This document shows positions 2 through 8,427 of a DNA stretch of 8,427 nt, in pieces. Numbering within the stretch: position 1 is the first letter of the stretch; each line of letters opens with the position of its first letter. This DNA comes from an uncultured Gammaproteobacteria bacterium (lineage in GTDB: Bacteria > Patescibacteriota > Microgenomatia > Daviesbacterales > UBA10151), in the NCBI GenBank assembly GCA_964522265.1, contig CAZFVS010000042.1, positions 1 to 8,427 of the forward strand, in the 5' to 3' direction. Both the position numbers and the translations under genes were made by a program. A model generated the notes under the pieces. That model did not search any database. It had not been told where the DNA came from and worked only from the letters and a program-made list of their open reading frames with translations.

Positions 2-355
2 ATGCATTTTTTAAGAAGAATCCTGGATGTGTTTTTGGGTAAAATGATCAGTATTCTTTTTATGTCTACAACTCTTACTGATGTGAGTTGTACTTTAAGG
101 TTGACTAACAGGAAGGGTTGGAAAAAAATCGCTTCAGAATGCAAGGTAGGTAGTGCCTTGTTTGCCACACAGTGGCTCTTACTTGCTATCAAAAATAATG
201 TTAAATTTATTGAAATCCCGATAAATTTTAGGTCAAGAGTAGGGCAGTCTTCTCTTACTGCAACTTTTTTTGACCAGGCCAAATGGGGTATCAGGATATT
301 TACTTATATCTGGAAAGTTTGGATCTATGCAAGAATGGATAAAAAACTTCACTAA
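2..355 (+). CDS. Glycosyltransferase family 2, Dpm1/GtrB/ArnC-like polyprenyl-phosphate sugar synthase; C-terminal fragment whose 5' end probably lies upstream of the window
   Basis: The frame is open to the window edge, so the ATG at 2 is probably internal. The translation contains 'TDVSCTLRLTNRKGW', which matches the acceptor-loop pattern D-x-S-G-F-R of this class. It also contains 'VKFIEIPINFRSRVGQSSL', matching the I-x-E-V-P-I-x-F-x-x-R-x-x-G-x-S-K signature of polyprenyl-phosphate hexose synthases. A hydrophobic/amphipathic tail (WGIRIFTYIWKVWIY) follows. Stop TAA at 353-355. Confidence 0.7.
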   Translation: MHFLRRILDVFLGKMISILFMSTTLTDVSCTLRLTNRKGWKKIASECKVGSALFATQWLLLAIKNNVKFIEIPINFRSRVGQSSLTATFFDQAKWGIRIFTYIWKVWIYARMDKKLH

Positions 356-2048
356 AATAAAGGTGCAGCTGGTAATTATTGTTTTAATTACCTTTCTGGC
401 TTATTCGAACATTCTGCAGAATGATTTTTTAGCAGATGACAGGGCGTTTATCCTGCAGTGGGACTTGCCCCGTGACATCAGGAATATCCCAAATTTATTT
501 ATCAGTAAAACCAACCCTCCCGGGCTCCCGCAAGACTACCGGCCTGTCAGGACAACCTTACTGGTCTTAAGTTACCAGCTTTGGGGTACAAATCCGGTTG
601 GGTATCATTTTGAATCAATGATAATCCACCTTATTATTACAATTCTGGTCTATTTTATAACCAAGGAATTAGTATTAAGTATTAAGTATCATGTATTACG
701 CAAAGACCCCTTAATACATAATACATACTACATAATACCTTTTCTGACTGCCCTGCTTTTTGGACTGCACCCGATTCATACAGAAGTAGTTGATTATGTA
801 ATGGTTAGCTTTAACACTGTGTCCGTAGCTTTTTTATTGTTGTCCTTCTACTTATACCTGAAAACTTTGAAAAAACTGTCGGTAGCTTTTTTTCTCTTGG
901 CCCTCTTTACGTACGAGATAGCCTTGGTATTGCCATTTCTAATTATGCTCTATGACTTCTGTTTTAAAACCATTAAGAAAAATTATCTAAAAAATTTTTC
1001 TTTAAGATATCTGCCTTACTTTTTTTCGGTATTTTTATTTTTATGGATCAGAGCCGGTTTGGCGGGGATGGGAAATGCAGAGAGGGGGCAATATCTGCTG
1101 GGTAGTTTCTATCTGAATATGTTAATTATGCCAAAATTAATCTGGAAATACATTGAGCTTTTGGTTTTTCCTTTAAACCTCTCGTTTATTCATAGAATTG
1201 CTAAGGGCTTTGAAACTTATCCTACTCCGTATTCAAATTTTGCATCCATTCAAAAAATGTCAATACTTAGTCCTGAAGTTATATTGCCAAGCCTGGTTCT
1301 GCTGGTTTTAGTAATCATTCTGTTTTGGAGTTTAAAAAAATTTCCGGTAATCTTTTTCTGTCTAGGATGGTTTTTTATAAGTATGTTTCCTTTTTTCAAC
1401 CTTATCCCGATAGGCGTCACGTTTAGCGAAAGGTACACATATTTGGCTTCAGTCGGTTTTGTTATTCTCATAACATATCTGTTCCACATCTGTTACTATC
1501 GGATCAGATGGAAGAAATTGGCTGTTTTACTGCTTGTGTTAATTTTAATTTTTTTATTTTTCAGGACGTATATCAGAAATTACGACTGGAGGAATATGGA
1601 GACATTTACAAAAAGTATTTTGAGGGTCAATTCGGAAAGTCTGATAGCCCGTTACAATTTAGCCCTTTATTATAAAGATACTGATCCCGGCCAGGCAGTT
1701 TTAGAGTACCGGAAGCTTTTGGAGATTGACCCCAGAGTTAAAGAGGCTCATTTTGACCTGGCTAATGTTTATTTGGCAACAGGTTACATCGAGCTTGCTG
1801 CACTGGAGTTTAACAGGACTTTAACGCTGGACTCAAATTTTATTGATGCTTATATTGCTTTAGGGCAGATCAATTTATCAAAAGGCCAGCTTAATATAGC
1901 AGAAGAATACTTCAAAAAAGCTTTGAATGTTGATCCAAGAAAATACCTGTTATTTCAGCTGCCGAAGAATGAAAGTGAAATTGCAATATCCCGCTCGCAG
2001 GCACTGGCAGGTTTACAAGCAGTCAAAGAGAAGCTTTCCCGGGAGTAA
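327..2048 (+). CDS. Polytopic GT-C-type glycosyltransferase with three C-terminal TPRs (TMTC-like / PMT_2-TPR family), paralog 1
   Basis: Long ORF with many hydrophobic helices. First-loop acidic motif 'AYSNILQNDFLADDRAFI' (DD at 435-440). 'YRPVR' motif. 'GLHPIHTEVV' (768-785), which matches the HP(I/V)HTEAV motif I recall from TMTC proteins. 'SERYTYLASVGF' followed by a TM helix and 'NYDWRN', then TPRs. All of these are shared with the ORFs at 5004 and 7154. The track start at 270 is a TTG and would overlap the upstream gene by 86 nt. ATG 327 gives an N-terminus (MQEWIKNFTKIKVQLVII) that aligns with paralog 2 (MKISKVNVQLTII). Confidence 0.85.
   Translation: MQEWIKNFTKIKVQLVIIVLITFLAYSNILQNDFLADDRAFILQWDLPRDIRNIPNLFISKTNPPGLPQDYRPVRTTLLVLSYQLWGTNPVGYHFESMIIHLIITILVYFITKELVLSIKYHVLRKDPLIHNTYYIIPFLTALLFGLHPIHTEVVDYVMVSFNTVSVAFLLLSFYLYLKTLKKLSVAFFLLALFTYEIALVLPFLIMLYDFCFKTIKKNYLKNFSLRYLPYFFSVFLFLWIRAGLAGMGNAERGQYLLGSFYLNMLIMPKLIWKYIELLVFPLNLSFIHRIAKGFETYPTPYSNFASIQKMSILSPEVILPSLVLLVLVIILFWSLKKFPVIFFCLGWFFISMFPFFNLIPIGVTFSERYTYLASVGFVILITYLFHICYYRIRWKKLAVLLLVLILIFLFFRTYIRNYDWRNMETFTKSILRVNSESLIARYNLALYYKDTDPGQAVLEYRKLLEIDPRVKEAHFDLANVYLATGYIELAALEFNRTLTLDSNFIDAYIALGQINLSKGQLNIAEEYFKKALNVDPRKYLLFQLPKNESEIAISRSQALAGLQAVKEKLSRE
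672..738. repeat. Imperfect AT-rich inverted repeat (27-nt arms, 23/27 complementary, 13-nt loop 699-711) embedded in-frame in paralog 1
   Basis: I paired 672-698 (gtattaagtattaagtatcatgtatta) with 712-738 (taatacataatacatactacataatac) base by base, and 23 of 27 positions are complementary. The left arm is built from GTATTAA units and the right arm from (T/A)TAATAC units. The segment encodes VLSIKYHVLRKDPLIHNTYYII. Confidence 0.75.
1647..1952 (+). other. Three consecutive 34-aa tetratricopeptide repeats of paralog 1
   Basis: ARYNLALYYKDTDPGQAVLEYRKLLEIDPRVKEA / HFDLANVYLATGYIELAALEFNRTLTLDSNFIDA / YIALGQINLSKGQLNIAEEYFKKALNVDPRKYLL. Each unit is 34 aa and carries the canonical small/large residue pattern (L-G-x-x-Y ... 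A-x-x-x-F/Y-x-x-A-L-x-x-x-P). Confidence 0.85.
2041..2045 (+). promoter_or_regulatory. Shine-Dalgarno-like GGGAG, 5 nt upstream of ATG 2051
   Basis: The sequence reads gggagTAAatATG. The RBS lies in the last codons of the upstream gene, which is consistent with translational coupling. Confidence 0.55.
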
Positions 2049-2050
2049 AT

Positions 2051-2902
2051 ATGGTAACAAAAATAATAGTTTGTCCAAACTGTAAAAACAAATCGAGCAT
2101 AATTTTAAAAGTTGATTCAGGAAAATTCAAAATCTTTTTCTGCCGGCAATGCCTGACCGGTTTTACCTATCCTGCCCCCAAAAATATTGCAAAATATTAT
2201 TCCAAAAAGTATTGGGTACCTAAAGGTTGGATTGGGCAGTTAAAAGTAAAAATTTATGCTTTTTTCCAAAGCAGAAGGTTAAAATGGGTTCAAAAAAAAT
2301 TACACCGGGGAAAAATTTTGGATGTGGGGGCGGGTGAAGGAATTTTCGCAAAGAAGATAGGGGCTCGATTTACGGTAGTTGGTATCGAACCGCCTTTTTC
2401 CAAAATAAAAAATAAACATATAATTAAAGTTGATTTTTTAAAATGGCAAACTAATCAAAAATTTGATGCAATAGTTTTTTGGGAAAGCCTGGAACATACA
2501 AGAGTCCCTCAAAAATATCTTGAAAAAGCATATAATCTGTTGAAAAAAGGAGGCCTGGTTTTTATAGAATATCCTGTCCTTGATTGTTTGGAATCAAAAA
2601 TTTTTGGTAGGTTTTGGTACCATCTTGATTTGCCAAGGCATCTTACTCATTTTACAGAAAAAGGGTTGGAAATTATAACTGCAAAGACAGGTTTTAAAAA
2701 AATTGACAGCAAAGATGTATTTGCCCTTGAATATATGCTGCCCGGTTTTTTATCAAGCGCTTTAAATATTAAACTTAATGAAGGTTCACCTGCGATTTTA
2801 ATTTCATTTGCGGTATTCTTGATACCGGCATTTATTATAGAATGGTTATCTTATCTTTTTAACCAATCACCAATCCGGGTTATGATTGTAAAGAAAGTTT
2901 AA
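2051..2902 (+). CDS. Class I SAM-dependent methyltransferase with an N-terminal 4-Cys zinc ribbon and a C-terminal transmembrane anchor
   Basis: Zinc-ribbon pattern CPNC-x17-CRQC at the N-terminus. Motif I 'ILDVGAGEGIFA' (2315-2341). Post-I acidic 'VVGIEP'. Motif II 'FDAIVFWESLEH'. Motif III 'LLKKGGLVFIEYP'. Hydrophobic C-terminal helix 'AILISFAVFLIPAFIIEWLSYLF'. Confidence 0.85.
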   Translation: MVTKIIVCPNCKNKSSIILKVDSGKFKIFFCRQCLTGFTYPAPKNIAKYYSKKYWVPKGWIGQLKVKIYAFFQSRRLKWVQKKLHRGKILDVGAGEGIFAKKIGARFTVVGIEPPFSKIKNKHIIKVDFLKWQTNQKFDAIVFWESLEHTRVPQKYLEKAYNLLKKGGLVFIEYPVLDCLESKIFGRFWYHLDLPRHLTHFTEKGLEIITAKTGFKKIDSKDVFALEYMLPGFLSSALNIKLNEGSPAILISFAVFLIPAFIIEWLSYLFNQSPIRVMIVKKV

Positions 2903-2908
2903 AAACTT

Positions 2909-5017
2909 ATGACTGAGCCTAAAATAGCAGCAATCCTGCCCGCATATAAAGCAGAAAAAACATTATTGCCCTTTTTAAAAACTTTACCGGCAGGAGTTTT
3001 TGATGAAATTATTTTAGTTGATGATTGCTCACCGGATAAAACTTATGAGATTGCCAAAAAACACCGCGGGATCAAGGTATACCAGAACCCAAAGAATTTA
3101 GGTTATGGGGGGAATGTCAAACAATGTTTGAAAATCGCTTTGAAACATGGGGCGGATGTTATGATTGAAATCCATCCTGATGGTGAATACGGGGCAGATG
3201 GGATTGTTCCGGCGCTTTTGGAAATTAAAAAAGGGGCACAATTTGTACTTGGTAACCGTTTTGCTAAAAACCCCCTAATATCGGGTATGTTTTTATGGAA
3301 GTATGTTTTAATCAGGGTATTAAATTTAATTCATAATCTGATTTTACGGACAAATATTCCCGATTTGCACCAAGGTTTTCGGGTTTATACCCGGCAGCAA
3401 TTAAACAGAGTAAATTTTAAAAAGATGAGTGATGGTTATATTTTTAGTTTTGAAATTATCATAGAGACAATCTCTAAAAAAATGCATATTGCGAGCGTTC
3501 CTGTCAGTATAAAATACAAAGGTGCCAAAAGGGGAGCTTCCTTTAAAAATAGTTTTATATATGGTTTACAAACTCTTGCAATTTGTTTAAGGGGAAACAG
3601 CTATTTTTTAATTCCAATATTTTTAATAGTTGTTCAGGGGATATATTCAATTTCATCAATAGGCGAACTGAGGCTTGAGGAAGCGATTGAATCTATAAGA
3701 AGTGTTTACTGGTTTCAAAATCATCTGGTCTGGAATGGTGGATATACAAATTTAGGATGGTATACGATTTTGGCGGTTGTCTATAATATCTTTGGTTTTA
3801 GTGTTTATAGCGCTAAGTTTGTTAAACTTTTTGTTTACATTTTAGCGCTTTTATGTCTTGCAGCTCTTTTAAAAAAATACTTAGGTGAAAAATTAGCTAT
3901 CGTTCCTCTTTTAATGATTGGATTCTCACCAACCCTCATATATTTAAACAGTTTACAGATATCGCATGGCATAGAGGTAAGTTATTTTTTAATCTGCTCT
4001 TACTTAATTTCTAACTTAAATTTTAAAAAAGGAGCTGAATGGGGATTACAAACAATTCTTGGAATTATAGCTGCAATTGCCGCTCTTTCATATCCGGCAT
4101 TTATTTACTACCTGCCAATCATTAGTTTTTATTATTTATATCAATTAAAAAATCAGTGTAAAAAGGCATCAATAAGCTTAATTGTATTTTGCGGGTATCT
4201 TTTACTTAGTATTTTATATATTAAGAATAGACAAATTCTTATATATGATACAAACAGTAATTTAGGATTATTTAGAGGAGGAGGCAGGTTAGAATTTGAT
4301 TTGGATCTTTTGGTAAGTAACTTTAGAATAATGTTTTCAGATTTATTTAAAATCCCAGTTAGTTATTATTTTGAACCATTAAAAACAGAGTTTTCAGATT
4401 TTTATCCAATGTTTGTAGTAATTTTTGTTATGGTTATGAGTTTAGTGCTTTTTCTTAAAATAAAAAGACTACGGTTTTTTATTGGATTTATTTGGATTTG
4501 TTTTTTAGGTTATTCAATTATTTTAAACTTATTTGGACCTATTGGGTTAGGAGGGGTAAGAAGGGAAACAATTATTCTTACTTTATTTTATTTACTTTTT
4601 GTAATTGTTTGGAAATTTATCTCAAACATAAAGAAATCTTCTTTCGGCCGGAATTTAGTTTTAATAGTTCTTGGTTTATTACTTATACATCACATCTTTG
4701 TTTACCCCCAAAATTTGAAACAATTGAATAAACAGAGTAAATTTGGTAACTGGTTTGCTCCAAATTCGGAACTTAATTTTAAAAGTCAAATCAAAACTAT
4801 TGAAGCAGAAGATCTATGGGTTGATTGCGAGGAAAATGTTAATCCCTATGCGCATTCAAGATGTGCAGGTTTAAGTATAAACTATGCCCTAGTAGCAGGC
4901 GAGTGTTTATGGAACAGGCGGCTTTGTCATAAAGTCATAGCTTTTGATGCAAAAAACCAAAAACATTTTTTGATTAATTTAGATTTTTGGGGGGAGGGAT
5001 CACATGCTGAACCATGA
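2909..5017 (+). CDS. Fusion protein: N-terminal Dpm1-like GT2 domain (about 2909-3595), polytopic PMT_2/ArnT-like GT-C membrane domain (about 3596-4700), and a soluble tail of about 98 aa with 4 Cys (about 4720-5014)
   Basis: GT2 domain: 'AAILPAYKAEKTL', 'IILVDDCSPDKT', 'NLGYGGNVKQC', the DxD-equivalent region 'VMIEIHPDGEY', 'DLHQGFRVYTR', and 'FEIIIE...HIASVPVSIKYKGAKRGASF'. The ORF continues without a stop into at least 10 hydrophobic helices. These begin with 'RLEEAIESIRSVYW' (acidic first loop) and 'NIFGFSVYSAKFVKLFVYILALLCLAALLKKYLGEKLAIVPLLMIGFSPTLIY', which fits the PMT_2 pattern F-G-x-S-x-x-x-x-R/K ... S-P. The tail is WVDCEENVNPYAHSRCAGLSINYALVAGECLWNRRLCH. Confidence 0.8.
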   Translation: MTEPKIAAILPAYKAEKTLLPFLKTLPAGVFDEIILVDDCSPDKTYEIAKKHRGIKVYQNPKNLGYGGNVKQCLKIALKHGADVMIEIHPDGEYGADGIVPALLEIKKGAQFVLGNRFAKNPLISGMFLWKYVLIRVLNLIHNLILRTNIPDLHQGFRVYTRQQLNRVNFKKMSDGYIFSFEIIIETISKKMHIASVPVSIKYKGAKRGASFKNSFIYGLQTLAICLRGNSYFLIPIFLIVVQGIYSISSIGELRLEEAIESIRSVYWFQNHLVWNGGYTNLGWYTILAVVYNIFGFSVYSAKFVKLFVYILALLCLAALLKKYLGEKLAIVPLLMIGFSPTLIYLNSLQISHGIEVSYFLICSYLISNLNFKKGAEWGLQTILGIIAAIAALSYPAFIYYLPIISFYYLYQLKNQCKKASISLIVFCGYLLLSILYIKNRQILIYDTNSNLGLFRGGGRLEFDLDLLVSNFRIMFSDLFKIPVSYYFEPLKTEFSDFYPMFVVIFVMVMSLVLFLKIKRLRFFIGFIWICFLGYSIILNLFGPIGLGGVRRETIILTLFYLLFVIVWKFISNIKKSSFGRNLVLIVLGLLLIHHIFVYPQNLKQLNKQSKFGNWFAPNSELNFKSQIKTIEAEDLWVDCEENVNPYAHSRCAGLSINYALVAGECLWNRRLCHKVIAFDAKNQKHFLINLDFWGEGSHAEP
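4993..4998 (+). promoter_or_regulatory. Strong Shine-Dalgarno-like GGAGGG, 5 nt upstream of ATG 5004
   Basis: The sequence reads ggGGAGGGatcacATG. It lies inside the 3' end of the fusion gene. Confidence 0.55.
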
Positions 5018-7157
5018 AAGACAATTTACAATTTACAATTTTCAATTTTCAATGAAAATTTCAAAAGTGAATGTTCAGTTAACAATAATTATTTTATTGA
5101 CAATTTTCGCTTATTCCAATATTTTCTCAAACGGTTTTGTGATTGATGATAAGAGTTTTATTGGGGGTTGGGAGGGGACTAAAAGTTTAGCAAACATCCC
5201 GAAATTTTTTGAGGGCAATGTTCCGCCGGGTCATGAAGGGGTTTACAGGCCCTTAAGAAGCGTGCTTTATGCAGTATATTACCAGGTGTTTGGCACAAAT
5301 ATTTTTGGTTACCACCTTCATTCTTTATTGGTGCATCTGGCAGCAACTATGCTGGTGTATTTTATAATCCAGGCTATTTTTGCGACATATAAGACTGATA
5401 AGTCATATAAGACCTATATTCCTTTTGTCACTGCCCTTTTTTTTGGCCTCCACCCCATCCATACAGAAACCATTACATATATAGCTTCGGGGATGGATGC
5501 AACAGGTATGATGCTTATGTTTTTATCCTTCTACCTATACCTTCGGGCACAACTCACCCCGGGGGTGAAGAAAATGCAGTTACACCCCCGGGGTGTAATC
5601 CTGGGAGCCTCAGTATTTTCTGCATTGGCAGCCTATTTTACCAATGAAACCACACTTATTTTGCCACTGCTGTTAATGCTGTATGATGTCTGTCTTCAAA
5701 ATCGTAAATCTTCAATCCTAAATCTTAAATCACTTGTAAAATATAGTCCATATTTGCTGGGAGTTATTTTATATTTAGGAATTAGATTTTTCGGTTTGCA
5801 TATCAGCTCAAGAGGGCCGTATCTTGCAGACAGCATCTATTTAACCGTACTCACCATGACTAAAGTGTTTGTAAAATATATCTCCCTTATGTTTTTGCCT
5901 TTAAACCAGGCAAACAACCATGCTGTTTCTAAAGGGATCGAGGCATTTGTTTACAGGGGTTACAGCCCTGATGCAATAAAGGCCCAAACATTATTTGATG
6001 CAGAAATATTACTCAGTGTTGTTGTTATTGTTGCACTTCTCATGTTTGCCTGGAAGATGAAGAAGAAACTACCCATTGTAACTTTTGGGATTGGATGGTT
6101 TTTTATTTCTCTTTTGCCTGTATCTGAAATTGTCCCGCAGGGCTCAATGTTGGGTGAGAGGTTTTTGTATATACCGTCGTTTGGGTTTTGCTTGCTGTTG
6201 GGATTGTTTTTTAGGGAGGTCATACGACGTATCAGACTTATTGGTCTCATAGGACTTATAGGACTGATAGTTTTTTACTCGGTTCAGACTTATCAACGGA
6301 ACAAAGATTGGCATGATGAACTAACTCTTTGGTCTAAAGATATCGCAGTCTATCCTGATGAAAATGCCTACGCATATTTTCAACTGGGGAATGTTTATCT
6401 GGAAAATAACCAGCTGGATGAAGCACTCTCCAACTATAATCGTTCTTTTGAAATCAACCCTCATTTTGCAGTGGCTGTTGCAAGTGCAGGCAGGGTTTAT
6501 GAGCGGCAGGACAATAAAGATGAGGCGGTAAGAAACTATCAAAAAGCCATAGATACAGACCCTAATTTTTGGGAAGGGTATATTATTTTAGGGGCTATAA
6601 ATATTGAGAATGGCAACTTTGATATTGCAAGTAAATATTATCAAAAACTTGCTGCAATTTATCCGCAGTATACTGCTGCTAAAGATATTTTAGAACAGCT
6701 TTCCAGGATCGAACCGGGTACTAAAAATCTCAAAGTAAGAGAGGGTGGTATCTATCAGGCATTCAGTAATGGGGCAGTTGCACTGACATATCCTGCGGGT
6801 TGGAAATTTAGAGACGGCAAGACAGAGTTTAAACTTACAGACAGAGATGAGAAACTAAAGATTGATATTAAAAAAACTGAAACGAAAGAAAGTTCCCTTA
6901 CGGACTATCTTGAATCAAGAAAAGATACTTTTGGGTTATTGAAGAACCAAGGGTCGGCTAAAATACCTCAATTTGACAATTCTTTTGTAAAAGTCTGGCA
7001 GGATCCCGTGGAGGGGGATATTTTAAAATTGCAGTTTTTCCTTTTAAAAGGAAGTGATATTTTAGAGATTTTAGTTTATCCGGCAGATTCGCCTTTGATG
7101 GGTCAATTTAATGAGATTTTAGCAAGTATTAAAATAGTAACATCACCCAAAAAATGA
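5004..7157 (+). CDS. Polytopic GT-C-type glycosyltransferase with three TPRs (TMTC-like), paralog 2, plus an extra C-terminal domain; alternative start ATG 5052
   Basis: Same motif series as paralog 1: 'AYSNIFSNGFVIDDKSFI' (DD 5145-5150), 'YRPLR', 'GLHPIHTETI' (5451-5468), 'GERFLYIPSFGF', 'NKDWHDE', then TPRs. It is collinear with paralog 1 along the whole membrane domain. ATG 5004 has a good SD. ATG 5052 gives an N-terminus that aligns better with paralog 1. Confidence 0.85.
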   Translation: MLNHERQFTIYNFQFSMKISKVNVQLTIIILLTIFAYSNIFSNGFVIDDKSFIGGWEGTKSLANIPKFFEGNVPPGHEGVYRPLRSVLYAVYYQVFGTNIFGYHLHSLLVHLAATMLVYFIIQAIFATYKTDKSYKTYIPFVTALFFGLHPIHTETITYIASGMDATGMMLMFLSFYLYLRAQLTPGVKKMQLHPRGVILGASVFSALAAYFTNETTLILPLLLMLYDVCLQNRKSSILNLKSLVKYSPYLLGVILYLGIRFFGLHISSRGPYLADSIYLTVLTMTKVFVKYISLMFLPLNQANNHAVSKGIEAFVYRGYSPDAIKAQTLFDAEILLSVVVIVALLMFAWKMKKKLPIVTFGIGWFFISLLPVSEIVPQGSMLGERFLYIPSFGFCLLLGLFFREVIRRIRLIGLIGLIGLIVFYSVQTYQRNKDWHDELTLWSKDIAVYPDENAYAYFQLGNVYLENNQLDEALSNYNRSFEINPHFAVAVASAGRVYERQDNKDEAVRNYQKAIDTDPNFWEGYIILGAINIENGNFDIASKYYQKLAAIYPQYTAAKDILEQLSRIEPGTKNLKVREGGIYQAFSNGAVALTYPAGWKFRDGKTEFKLTDRDEKLKIDIKKTETKESSLTDYLESRKDTFGLLKNQGSAKIPQFDNSFVKVWQDPVEGDILKLQFFLLKGSDILEILVYPADSPLMGQFNEILASIKIVTSPKK
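5021..5053. repeat. Tandem 7-8 nt repeat (A)CAATTT(T), about 4.3 copies, between the two candidate starts of paralog 2
   Basis: The units are acaattt (5021-5027), acaattt (5028-5034), acaatttt (5035-5042), caatttt (5043-5049) and caatg (5050-5054). The final partial unit runs into ATG 5052-5054. Confidence 0.8.
5388..5414. repeat. In-frame 9-bp tandem repeat x3 (tataagact / gataagtca / tataagacc) encoding YKT-DKS-YKT
   Basis: 'catataagac' occurs exactly at 5386-5395 and at 5404-5413. 'ataag' recurs with a 9-nt period at 5389, 5398 and 5407. Confidence 0.75.
5555..5595. repeat. Perfect 13-bp GC-rich inverted repeat (CACCCCGGGGGTG ... CACCCCCGGGGTG) with a 15-nt spacer, in-frame inside paralog 2
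   Basis: The reverse complement of 5583-5595 equals 5555-5567 exactly. Each arm is 11/13 G+C against an AT-rich background, and each arm is also nearly self-complementary. The spacer is aagaaaatgcagtta. Confidence 0.85.
6228..6272. repeat. In-frame 9-bp tandem repeat x5 (cgtatcaga cttattggt ctcatagga cttatagga ctgatagtt) encoding RIR-LIG-LIG-LIG-LIV
   Basis: Direct reading of the sequence. The units share the pattern C-T/G-N-A-T-N-G/A-G-N. The array lies in the TM helix that follows the ERFLYIPSFGF motif. Confidence 0.7.
6366..6671 (+). other. Three consecutive 34-aa tetratricopeptide repeats of paralog 2
   Basis: AYAYFQLGNVYLENNQLDEALSNYNRSFEINPHF / AVAVASAGRVYERQDNKDEAVRNYQKAIDTDPNF / WEGYIILGAINIENGNFDIASKYYQKLAAIYPQY. 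Confidence 0.85.
6711..7154 (+). other. Paralog-2-specific C-terminal soluble domain of about 148 aa and unknown function
   Basis: Paralog 1 has no counterpart; its tail after the TPRs is only about 35 aa. The sequence alternates polar and hydrophobic residues and looks beta-rich (AVALTYPAGWKF, EFKLTD, LKIDIKK, FVKVWQDP, LKLQFFLLKG, ILEILVYP). The 'Y-P-x-G-W' opening resembles PsbP/DcrB(DUF1795)-type domains, but that resemblance is weak. Confidence 0.5.
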
Positions 7158-8427
7158 TTGGTCTTATATTGTCAAGGGTTTATCAGTATTTATTGGTTCT
7201 TACGGTAATACTTCTTTTTTACGGAAATACTTTAGGTAACGGATTTGTTTACGATGACCCTGCGTTTATTACGAATAATGACTTAGTTCATAGTTTATCA
7301 AATATCCCAAAAATACTTACTGGATGTTTAATGGGTTTTTCGGGTGCAACCTGCCAGGATGCAGGAGTCTATTATCATCCGTTTTTATTTCTACAGTTTT
7401 TGTTTACTTATCAAATTTCGCCAGATCCATTTTTATTCCATGCAGTAAATTTATTAATTTTATCAGGAACAATCATGCTGGTACTGATTTTTTTTGAAAA
7501 GATTTTTGGAAAAGGATTGTTACCTATTCTGGCGGTGCTGCTAGTACTTATAAATCCTATCAACTCCGAGATTGGTAACTTTGTTTCTGCAGTAAATGAT
7601 CAATACTTGGTGATATTTTTTATTTTAGGCTTTTTAAGCCTGATAAAATTTTCAAAAACAGGAACTAAAAAGTATCTTTATCTGTCTTTATTTTTTTACT
7701 TTCTGGATTTAATAGCCAAAGAATCAGCAGTATTTTTATTTATTCCGGGTCTATTTTACTACAGATTTCTTACAAAATCAAAAAGCAAGCTTCCATTATA
7801 TAAATTAGTCATGTGGTATCTTATCCCGCTCGTGTTCTATTCGGGTTTAAGAATTGTTGTACTGGGAAAGTTGATCCATAATTTAACCGGTTATCATGAT
7901 ATGGATTTTTTTACCCAAATTTTAACCGGAATCTCAATTTACCCATTATATTTATCAAAACTGTTATATCCTTTGCCCCTTAATGCTCAACACGATCCTC
8001 TTGTGATAAGGAGCATGAACCTGAGGTTTTATCTATCTTTAGGGTTTTGGATTGTAAATGGTTGGTTGGCTTATCTTCTAATCAGAAAAAAGCTGTACCG
8101 GATATTATTTGGTTTCAGTTTAATTTTTTTATCGCTTGTGCCGGTGCTTATTTTAATCAATAAAATCGGGCGGTTTATTTTAGCCGAGAGGTATCTATTT
8201 TTACCAAGCATCGGCTTTTCACTGGTTGTTGTTGGATTCATGGTTAAGATTTTAGGAGCACACCTGAAAAATGTTAGGCTAAAATATATTCTTGTTGGGT
8301 TGTTTTTGATATATGTTGCGGGTAGTTGGTGGGTTGTATTCAACAGAAACAGAGACTGGAAGAATGAATTTACTTTTAACAAAAGTATAGCGGCATTCAC
8401 ACAAGATAACTTTGGGGTTTTGTATAA
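7154..8427 (+). CDS. Polytopic GT-C-type glycosyltransferase (TMTC-like), paralog 3, divergent; 3' end beyond the window. It is not in the supplied ORF track because no stop falls in the window
   Basis: I translated the frame by hand from ATG 7154 and found no stop through 8425. The ATG overlaps the TGA of the upstream gene (ATGA, 7154-7157), and the frame is closed upstream by TAA at 7130-7132. It shares the family motifs: 'FYGNTLGNGFVYDDPAFI' (DD 7253-7258), 'AERYLFLPSIGF' and 'NRDWKNE'. The position of HPIHTE is occupied by 'NPINSE' (7553-7570). Confidence 0.8.
   Translation, partial: MIGLILSRVYQYLLVLTVILLFYGNTLGNGFVYDDPAFITNNDLVHSLSNIPKILTGCLMGFSGATCQDAGVYYHPFLFLQFLFTYQISPDPFLFHAVNLLILSGTIMLVLIFFEKIFGKGLLPILAVLLVLINPINSEIGNFVSAVNDQYLVIFFILGFLSLIKFSKTGTKKYLYLSLFFYFLDLIAKESAVFLFIPGLFYYRFLTKSKSKLPLYKLVMWYLIPLVFYSGLRIVVLGKLIHNLTGYHDMDFFTQILTGISIYPLYLSKLLYPLPLNAQHDPLVIRSMNLRFYLSLGFWIVNGWLAYLLIRKKLYRILFGFSLIFLSLVPVLILINKIGRFILAERYLFLPSIGFSLVVVGFMVKILGAHLKNVRLKYILVGLFLIYVAGSWWVVFNRNRDWKNEFTFNKSIAAFTQDNFGVLY

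Follow-up and report, generated by a model that had tools for sequence, protein, structure and literature searches.

Synthesis of a lipid-linked sugar donor and transfer of its sugar take place on opposite faces of the membrane. A natural fusion of a Dpm1-like GT2 with a polytopic membrane domain is found in Ppm1 of M. tuberculosis, in which polyprenol-P-mannose synthase is joined to an Lnt-like (apolipoprotein N-acyltransferase-like) domain. In DPMS (PDB 5mlz), GtrB, and ArnC, an N-terminal GT-A catalytic domain is likewise followed by membrane helices, but these are the synthase's own 2 to 4 TM helices and have no transferase function. Where a GT2 of this DPMS/GtrB/ArnC class is found with a GT-C enzyme, as in GtrB-GtrA-Gtr* (Shigella/Salmonella), ArnC-ArnE/F-ArnT, GacI/J-GacK-GacL, and CsbB-GtcA-YfhO, the enzymes are separate; three- and four-component systems of this type (GtrB/GtrA/Gtr*, GacI/J/K/L) are described in PMC11127046 and PMC10821137. 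In the GacJ-GacI and WpsB-WpsA pairs, a TM-less polyprenyl-P sugar synthase needs a membrane partner, and natural fusions occur in some species (PMC10821137). The partner in these pairs is a small 3-TM activator N-terminal to the GT2. An engineered WpsAB fusion lacked activity with the GT2 first and the membrane partner second, but was functional with the order reversed (PMC10821137).

We analysed a contig of 8427 bp (the whole stretch of DNA, hereafter the window) from a host described as an uncultured groundwater-type, Daviesbacteria-like CPR bacterium. Its central gene lies in a glycan gene cluster, combines the two kinds of enzyme found in the multi-component systems and may share their logic, with a polyprenyl-P-sugar made inside and used outside (PMC11127046, PMC10821137). 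However, here they form one polypeptide, and no flippase gene is visible in the window. The arrangement also differs from the TM-bearing synthases, in that the TM part is a whole second enzyme; from the GacJ/WpsB type, in that the partner is a 474-aa GT-C domain placed C-terminally; and from Ppm1, which is lineage-fixed, in that the GT2 comes first, the partner is GT-C, and the fusion is a singleton. The features of the window are the following.

2..355, + strand: 3'-terminal part of another Dpm1-like GT2 gene, paralogous to the one in the fused ORF (81% nt identity with a 241-aa GT2 of the relative L001, introduced below)
270..2048, + strand: 592-aa polytopic membrane + TPR protein upstream, counted from the listed TTG (ORF list)
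2051..2902, + strand: upstream neighbour, Zn-ribbon + class I SAM methyltransferase, 283 aa (PF13489, E 8e-24)
2909..5017, + strand: fused ORF, GT2 + GT-C membrane domain + Cys tail (ORF list)
2909..3592, + strand: GT2 (GT-A fold) polyprenyl-phosphate glycosyltransferase-like domain, residues 1-228 (Pfam, PDB, Foldseek)
3167..3190, + strand: E-I-H-P-D-G-E-Y, residues 87-94, with H-P-D at the DxD position (alignment to 5mlz)
3578..3604, + strand: fusion junction AICL-R-GNSY, residues 224-232 (DNA alignments, model)
3593..5014, + strand: predicted GT-C-fold polytopic membrane domain, 11 TM helices, N-in/C-out (AlphaFold, Foldseek)
3671..3691, + strand: R-L-E-E-A-I-E, residues 255-261, first extracytoplasmic loop with candidate catalytic E257/E258 (alignment)
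3782..3934, + strand: Y-N-I-F-G-F-S ... L-K-K-Y-L-G ... S-P-T block, weak PMT_2 region (alignment)
4724..5014, + strand: 97-aa C-terminal tail, residues 606-702, predicted extracytoplasmic small alpha/beta module (model, alignment)
5004..7157, + strand: downstream neighbour, polytopic membrane + TPR protein, 717 aa, whose start may be ATG 5052 (ORF list)
7154..8427, + strand: 5' portion of a further membrane + TPR gene, the third, cut off by the contig end (comparison)

The ORF list bears out the initial annotation's single frame at 2909-5017: an unbroken 702-codon ATG-to-TGA frame with its TGA at 5015-5017, the product of which is also present as an NCBI protein entry (P0055). Between 3450 and 3760 the two other forward frames contain 10 and 6 stops, as expected in DNA this AT-rich (26-36% G+C around the fused ORF). 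From codon 192 to codon 288 there is no in-frame ATG, GTG, or TTG; separate translation of the membrane domain in the window is thereby ruled out, and the domain depends on the fusion. The full-length fused protein is modeled with pLDDT 91.2 and pTM 0.83.

The first half had been called a Dpm1-like GT2, and each comparison agrees. Pfam PF00535 matches residues 9-164 (E 1.2e-17, 64.8 bits against a gathering threshold of 23.3, profile positions 3-163 of 168), the best PDB sequence match by phmmer is the Pyrococcus furiosus DPMS 5mlz (E 1.7e-7), and DPMS, ArnC, and GtrB occupy Foldseek ranks 1-14. Judged by these closest structures and sequences, the half belongs to the polyprenyl-phosphate glycosyltransferases of the DPMS/GtrB/ArnC class. 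Its nearest NCBIfam resemblances are to AglJ, PpgS, and Dol-P hexose transferase, and it does not belong to the named NCBIfam equivalogs (63.7, 60.9, and 36.8 bits against cutoffs of 325, 370, and 375). The E-I-H-P-D-G-E-Y segment, reported earlier as an atypical DxD region, is present; its H-P-D aligns with D-A-D of 5mlz and stands where the GT2s of the multi-component systems have D-x-D. The departure is not decay, however: P90 and D91 (the second Asp) are invariant, H-P-D-G-E-Y is conserved across the orthologous GT2 subfamily, and the first DxD position is His throughout that subfamily and Glu or Asp in paralogs. On this alignment, H-P-D is a conserved subfamily trait. Elsewhere, at the point where the GT2 half of the fused protein ends, its orthologs carry on with a hydrophobic helix and then another module. 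In the homologs of ~530 aa (P0010-P0035) the aligned order is GT2, hydrophobic helix, Zn-ribbon, methyltransferase, and the reverse reading of these proteins, methyltransferase before GT2, was rejected.

The membrane half (residues 229-702) is modeled by AlphaFold with pLDDT 88.9 and pTM 0.91. The predicted topology, 11 TM helices running N-in/C-out, agrees with a positive-inside tally in which the short cytoplasmic loops are K/R-rich. GT-C enzymes make up all of the top 26 PDB matches in Foldseek (prob 0.98-1.0, TM up to 0.54), and transporters and flippases score about 0.1; a flippase or acyltransferase identity is therefore ruled out, and by its model the half is a GT-C fold. ArnT (GT83), PMT (GT39), ALG12/ALG3/ALG9, and STT3/PglB/AglB share this fold with it (TM-scores 0.4-0.54, probability about 1.0) and, like it, carry acidic residues in the first outer loop, although sequence identity to the solved GT-C enzymes is 8-13%. 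Indeed, a profile of 31 membrane-family sequences found no match among all PDB chains even at E<=10, so the family can be placed only by its fold. In contrast to the GT-C enzymes of the multi-component systems, it belongs to an uncharacterised family, mostly from CPR genomes, with >100 clusters at 50% identity and stand-alone orthologs of about 460-515 aa. Pfam PMT_2 (PF13231) is sub-threshold on the fused protein (17.7-18.7 bits against 26.1, stretch 287-434) and reaches E<=0.1 in 6 of the 31 family members (best 1e-6); NCBI names an ortholog 'glycosyltransferase family 39 protein'. A luminal MIR domain is the mark of true PMTs; the fused protein has no Pfam match to one, and its large outer loop is only about 60 aa. 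Neither Pfam nor NCBIfam finds a CN-hydrolase/Lnt-like domain in the fused protein, which sets it apart from a Ppm1-type fusion.

The initial annotation had described a polytopic GT-C transferase-like domain with an acidic first loop, an F-G-x-S...S-P segment and a soluble four-cysteine tail of about 98 aa. All of these hold, and the non-GT match that would have spoken against them is not seen. In the RLEEAIE loop at residues 255-261, E257 and E258 (E29 and E30 in domain numbering) are invariant in 31 homologs, and R255 (R27) and E261 (E33) are nearly so. YNIFGFS lies at 292-298 and FSPT at 339-342, with Y64, G68, S112, and P113 (domain numbering) among the invariant columns. The tail measures 97 aa and has exactly four cysteines, C640, C652, C666, and C673; all four are invariant in a 13-sequence alignment, and two stay nearly invariant among 31 sequences. 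This four-Cys module is peculiar to the window's membrane family when set against ArnT, PMT, ALG, and STT3. Fold and context together suggest that, on the outer face, the GT-C half would draw its sugar from a polyprenyl-(pyro)phosphate-linked donor.

The origin of the fusion emerges from the closest relative, a Candidatus Daviesbacteria MAG (GCA_016186955.1, here L001), which is 95% identical in aa sequence over the membrane half (P0001) and 88% over the GT2. There the halves are separate genes, a GT2 of 229 aa at 7315-8004 and a membrane gene of 476 aa at 8001-9431, overlapping by 4 bp as ATGA. The same split junction appears in L006, an independently made Logan assembly 99.97% identical to L001; with all other family members stand-alone as well, an error in the split state of L001 was rejected. 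In DNA alignments the window lacks exactly 5 bp (AAATG) relative to L001 and L006, between 3589 and 3590, where TTAAAATGAGGGG of the split relatives becomes TTAAGGGG. Within 3560-3640 the fused sequence includes TTGTTTAAGGGG, and the junction residues at 3578-3604 are YGLQTLAICLRG followed by NSYFLIPIFL. Since this loss deletes both the TGA stop and the ATG start and corrects the one-base frame offset, one 5-bp deletion accounts for the fusion. No adaptation of the sequence around the junction was found beyond the deletion itself. In the model, a helix at 212-228 breaks at G229-N230 and resumes as a helix at 231-249, leaving essentially no linker between GT2 and GT-C.

It could be that the organism still has two ATGA-overlapping genes and that the assembler introduced the 5-bp gap, for example through strain heterogeneity. 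Only a single short contig (8427 bp) shows the fused state, and every relative is split. Nearby, at 5048, another indel against L001 changes the frame within a short tandem repeat and might point to problems in the local assembly. However, a 5-bp deletion in non-repetitive DNA is untypical of short-read or homopolymer errors. Within coding sequences every remaining indel against L001 has a length divisible by 3, which speaks against a generally noisy contig, and both frame-changing indels fall at gene boundaries, where they are tolerated, as real selection-filtered mutations would. Moreover, only 49 of the 2112 possible 5-bp deletions in the L001 gene pair (2.3%) leave one uninterrupted ORF. 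The deletion is probably real, since a random error would rarely land among these positions and a mutation filtered by selection would; we regard an artefact as unlikely.

Is the fused state found anywhere else? An exhaustive search of 1.84 billion representatives gave no protein spanning both halves among the best 150 of 11,635 matches, and word-indexed searches gave none among 36 and 22 matches. All 43 members of 10 clusters are unfused (<=525 aa). The window's own 702-aa protein sits in a cluster represented by a split protein. At about 20 further ortholog or paralog loci, the stop-to-stop frames leave no space for a GT2. Neither exact-protein look-ups (the 702-aa product, P0055, the neighbouring methyltransferase) nor two JGI metagenome scans with junction-flanking patterns nor the gene-position index returned a second copy, and the fused state thus rests on one contig in one assembly. 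A limited open-access literature search found no described natural GT2-GT-C fusion, and fusions of other GT2 and GT-C families may exist in databases. The initial annotation had proposed looking for the fusion in orthologs; the nearest ortholog is split, none of about 60 further relatives and their loci is fused, and fused orthologs in independent lineages, which would mark a conserved bifunctional GT2-GT-C family, did not appear in these sequence searches.

These results bear on the proposal, also made in the initial annotation, that an adaptive fusion channels polyprenyl-P-sugar from GT2 to GT-C, with the membrane domain possibly aiding translocation. The model is topologically coherent and of high confidence, an ATGA overlap in the ancestor hints that expression was coupled and that the two proteins may form a complex, and GT2s of the DPMS/ArnC/GtrB class naturally bear C-terminal TM helices. 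Against this, conservation is zero, both among the matches above and in close relatives; the fused gene is one 5-bp deletion away from a 95%-identical split ortholog; and it has neither a linker nor any further adaptation at the junction. With synthesis and transfer on opposite faces, tethering alone cannot channel substrate without a flipping step. The channelling and translocation idea is left unsupported, the homologs all being encoded as two genes, and we consider such an evolved bifunctional enzyme very improbable.

In many relatives (P0010-P0035) the orthologous GT2 carries at its C-terminal end the Zn-ribbon + methyltransferase module that in the window is the upstream neighbour. The 592-aa membrane + TPR gene is absent at the matching position in L001, and the third membrane + TPR gene overlaps the one before it by ATGA. 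Gene pairs with a 4-nt overlap are described as translationally coupled and often encoding complex subunits (PMC10666635). Outside the Daviesbacteria pair there is no conserved adjacency of this GT2 type and the membrane family, and a conserved two-gene GT2/GT-C module beyond that pair was rejected, the adjacency being absent in the other loci. The suggestion that the GT2 makes the donor for the adjoining GT-C accordingly draws on adjacency and the ATGA overlap in one lineage.

A damaging fusion was also weighed, that is, a recent loss-of-function allele lacking one or both activities and tolerated through paralog redundancy. The zero-length linker fits it, as does the inactive WpsAB fusion in the same GT2-first order (PMC10821137). 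The locus is rich in paralogs (the second GT2 at 2-355 and three membrane + TPR genes), the membrane family occurs elsewhere as tandem paralogs, and further Dpm1-like GT2s are present in the cluster, together with several more GT-C candidates. Yet both halves are intact, with 702 codons free of stops in AT-rich DNA, and the invariant family residues are all kept. Between the membrane half and its L001 counterpart, 40 codon differences are synonymous and 25 non-synonymous, and no stop has arisen; the pattern is mostly synonymous, although it cannot date the deletion. On balance, loss of function seems unlikely to us.

We therefore favor, as the likely explanation, that two neighbouring genes of a multi-component extracytoplasmic glycosylation pathway fused in frame very recently and within a single lineage, in a Daviesbacteria-like CPR bacterium. 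Points against it are the restriction of the fused state to one assembly, the near-zero linker, the lack of conserved adjacency outside the Daviesbacteria pair, and the lack of a visible flippase gene in the window. The most plausible view of the fusion is that of a tolerated accident tethering two enzymes that cooperate, rather than an evolved channelling device. Known relatives keep separate genes, here joined by a 5-base loss at the stop/start overlap, which argues for a one-off recent event and not an evolved two-in-one enzyme. In the ancestral state, a TM-less GT2 (229 aa) and a GT-C protein (476 aa) would have been encoded by genes overlapping as ATGA. Loss of AAATG would have stripped the first gene of its TGA and the second of its ATG and realigned the frame, so that the last amphipathic helix of the GT2 would lead through a two-residue Gly-Asn turn into TM1 of the GT-C domain. 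Because the GT-C N-terminus is predicted to be cytoplasmic, the fusion is topologically allowed; it also imitates the natural arrangement of DPMS, GtrB, and ArnC, with TM helices after the catalytic domain. The cytoplasmic GT2 would then move a sugar from a nucleotide sugar to polyprenyl phosphate, a protein encoded outside the window would flip the lipid-linked sugar, and the GT-C domain would pass the sugar to some cell-surface acceptor via the invariant Glu-Glu of its first outer loop, perhaps assisted by an outer tail that disulfides would stabilise. The domain identities, the 5-bp difference, and the absence of the fusion from the other sequences compared are direct results; in this scheme we infer the activity of the fused protein, its reaction chemistry and its topology from sequence and models.

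For annotation the case is a caution: what looks like a remarkable bifunctional architecture is a singleton that a single mutation separates from an ordinary two-gene state. The fusion is probably genuine, with a topology that can be tolerated; it lends no support to evolved substrate channelling and gives no basis for a new enzyme class. It does exemplify the one-step fusion of ATGA-overlapping, translationally coupled genes, which needs no more than a deletion across the overlap whose length is 2 mod 3. It is conceivable, though we would not count on it, that the deletion is real and that the 702-aa protein keeps both activities, as a natural single-chain polyprenyl-P-sugar synthase and GT-C transferase. 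If so, this would be a 'Rosetta-stone' fusion caught at birth, implying that the cytoplasmic N-terminus of the GT-C protein is the usual docking site of the TM-less GT2, and the fused protein would be a ready construct for studying the coupling of donor synthesis, flipping, and transfer. For glycobiology the result is a small one: the fusion ties a TM-less DPMS/GtrB-like GT2 to a specific GT-C partner and points to a physical or functional pairing only hinted at by adjacency.

The window is an entire contig of 8427 bp, and the 702-codon frame described in the initial annotation is present in it, uninterrupted, at 2909..5017 on the forward strand. The surrounding DNA has a G+C content of 26-36%, and there are many stops in the other two forward frames around the junction. 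As claimed, the GT2 domain is complete (PF00535, residues 9-164, E 1.2e-17), and the junction of AICLRG with NSYF lies at residues 224-232. The polytopic half (residues 229-702) carries the features ascribed to it: the loop R-L-E-E-A-I-E at residues 255-261, the Y-N-I-F-G-F-S and F-S-P-T segments, and a tail, here of 97 residues, with exactly four cysteines. No in-frame start codon occurs from codon 192 to codon 288, so only the fusion can yield the membrane domain complete with TM1 and its invariant Glu-Glu loop.

The GT2 half (residues 1-228) is similar to enzymes that charge polyprenyl phosphate with a sugar. By sequence, its top PDB match is the dolichyl-phosphate mannose synthase of P. 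furiosus (E 1.7e-7); by structure, the AlphaFold model of this half has DPMS, ArnC and GtrB as its first 14 matches. The closest NCBIfam resemblances are to AglJ, PpgS and dolichyl-phosphate hexose transferase, all far under the equivalog cut-offs. The DxD region had been called atypical, and H-P-D indeed aligns with D-A-D in the PDB sequence alignment. However, this is a family trait rather than decay, since E-[IL]-H-P-D-G-E-Y is conserved across the orthologous GT2 subfamily and its second Asp is invariant. In most cases the orthologous GT2 (P0010-P0035; loci L017-L019) forms the N-terminus of a protein of ~530 aa, in which it is followed by a hydrophobic helix, a CxxC...CxxC zinc ribbon, a SAM methyltransferase and a C-terminal hydrophobic helix. 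The zinc-ribbon methyltransferase of the window and of L001, the locus of the closest relative, is a separate gene upstream of GT2, so that identical modules occur in a permuted gene order.

The membrane half matches Pfam PMT_2 only below threshold (17.7-18.7 bits vs 26.1), and a 31-sequence profile of its family has no PDB match by sequence. Its AlphaFold model is of high confidence (pLDDT 88.9, pTM 0.91), and all 26 of its best structural matches are GT-C glycosyltransferases (ALG12, STT3, AglB, ArnT, Pmt4, Emb, PglB, ALG3/9 and AftA; probabilities 0.98-1.0, TM-scores up to 0.54), while transporters and flippases score a TM of ~0.1. The original domain assignments are therefore correct at the level of fold, but membership in PMT_2/GT39 proper is not established. 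Among 31 homologs, E257 and E258 of the first loop are invariant; the homolog alignments also show S340-P341 and several further positions to be invariant and the four tail cysteines to be conserved. The model helices give 11 TM helices with the N-terminus in and the C-terminus out, and short cytoplasmic loops rich in K/R. This layout places the Cys-rich tail outside the cell, a predicted location consistent with disulfides.

The membrane family is a divergent GT-C family found mostly in CPR genomes. A few loci lie in contigs labelled Acidobacteriota or Gammaproteobacteria; labels at L007/L004, L010, L012, L013 and L016 (the last a weak match, E 2e-4) include "uncultured Gammaproteobacteria," "Solibacteraceae," "Acidobacteriota" and "Pyrinomonadaceae" MAGs. 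The labels may reflect a spread of the family outside CPR or a mis-binning of those contigs. Two or three paralogs often share one gene cluster, as in L008 (3977-7576), L010 (3989-9386, adjacent in tandem) and L004 (547-2073, 7654-8076), and the L001 contig carries a second and a third ~10-20 kb downstream.

The membrane half has its closest relative in a Candidatus Daviesbacteria MAG: P0001, a stand-alone protein of 476 aa with 95% identity that carries the name "glycosyltransferase family 39 protein". At its locus, L001, three genes encode a methyltransferase (289 aa), GT2 (7315-8004, 229 aa) and, at 8001-9431, the membrane protein; the second and third overlap by ATGA. Base-by-base alignment shows that the window is short of exactly five bases at this point (TTGCTTAAAATGAGGGG in L001 vs TTGTTTA-----AGGGG). 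The deletion takes out the stop of GT2 (TGA) together with the start of the membrane gene (ATG) and compensates the one-base frame offset, so that the fused protein lacks the last Lys of GT2 and the initiator Met of its partner and nothing else. The same split junction appears in L006, a Logan assembly obtained independently for the L001 population (99.97% identity).

The fusion is not conserved. With the whole 702-aa protein as query, phmmer found 11,635 matches among 1.84 billion cluster representatives; none of the best 150, which were inspected (E <= 2e-41), spans both halves, each covering either ~1-230 or ~227-702. Two word-indexed searches (36 and 22 matches) likewise returned no fused protein. 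Clustering had subsumed the window's protein itself under P0001, so we examined the members of the ten multi-member clusters; none of the 43 exceeds 525 aa. At the loci of some 20 other orthologs and paralogs, no more than ~35 codons precede the membrane domain in the stop-to-stop frame, with one exception, where there are 137 codons that lack GT2 similarity. Nor is the membrane family consistently adjacent to a window-type GT2 at the loci examined. Every homolog examined thus has the two halves in separate genes, the outcome that the initial annotation had named as refuting its reading.

Such a singleton might be an assembly artefact, which we regard as unlikely. Over the 3.3 kb compared with L001, at about 87% identity, all other in-coding indels are multiples of three, so the contig is not generally noisy; the sole other frame-changing indel, of 20 bp, falls right where the next gene begins, within a short tandem repeat. 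The membrane half differs by 40 synonymous and 25 non-synonymous codons, with no stops. Loss of 5 bp in non-repetitive sequence would be an atypical error. Moreover, of the 2112 ways to delete 5 bp from the L001 gene pair, only 49 (2.3%) give one uninterrupted ORF, and the observed one falls among them, as expected for a selection-filtered mutation and not for a randomly placed error. Exact-protein look-ups and JGI metagenome scans with junction-flanking patterns found no second copy of the fused junction.

The neighbouring genes are as follows.

2-355, 3' part of a paralogous GT2, which directly adjoins the methyltransferase in L001
270-2048, polytopic membrane + TPR gene (592 aa), between the paralogous GT2 and the methyltransferase
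5004-7157, membrane + TPR gene, next after the fused ORF
7154-8427, third membrane + TPR gene

Since its flanking genes are directly adjacent in L001, the 592-aa gene was either inserted in the window or lost from L001. Identity to L001 over the methyltransferase gene region (2040-2925) is mosaic (~58% at 2040-2330, 99% at 2478-2628, ~57% at 2778-2925), which suggests recombination between related strains. At 5004-5070 (L001 9428-9470) the 20-bp insertion lies inside a CAATTT(T) tandem repeat. There the L001-type start (ATG at 5014, ATGA overlap) meets a stop, so the gene starts at ATG 5004 or ATG 5052, and its N-terminus must be remodelled relative to L001. Pfam recognises only TPRs in the three membrane + TPR proteins, which share an N-terminal motif, F-x-x-D-D-x-x-F-I, directly behind the first hydrophobic helix; they may be TMTC/PMT-like GT-C enzymes with putative TPR acceptor-binding domains.

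With its two Dpm1-like GT2s, its GT-C, one methyltransferase and three polytopic membrane + TPR proteins, the window is a cluster of parts like those of three-/four-component glycosylation systems, in which a GT2 makes polyprenyl-P-sugar at the cytoplasmic face, a small flippase carries it across and a GT-C enzyme hands the sugar on to a glycan or protein at the surface (PMC11127046, PMC10821137). No flippase is visible within the window. The ancestral 4-nt overlap implies translational coupling of the GT2 and GT-C genes, as is often seen where two genes encode subunits of one complex (PMC10666635). Since the N-terminus of the GT-C is predicted to be cytoplasmic, the topology permits the fusion, which reproduces the native layout of DPMS, GtrB and ArnC, a catalytic domain and then TM helices. 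In the full-length model, which is confident (pLDDT 91.2, pTM 0.83), helix 212-228 is followed by a Gly-Asn break and TM1 (231-249). This predicted lack of a linker, and the inactivity of a GT2-first fusion in the WpsA/WpsB system (PMC10821137), argue against the fusion being easily tolerated. The initial annotation had proposed substrate channelling and a role in translocation. Tethering alone does not suffice to channel a substrate whose route leads across the membrane, and conservation lends these ideas no support.

Both halves are new representatives of kinds already known, one a DPMS/GtrB/ArnC-class GT2 with an H-P-D motif, the other a divergent GT-C. The novelty lies in the single-chain arrangement, a singleton one mutation from the ordinary two-gene state, which does not amount to a new enzyme class. 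It deserves to be recorded as a gene fusion caught at birth, and it hints that GT2 and GT-C work together.
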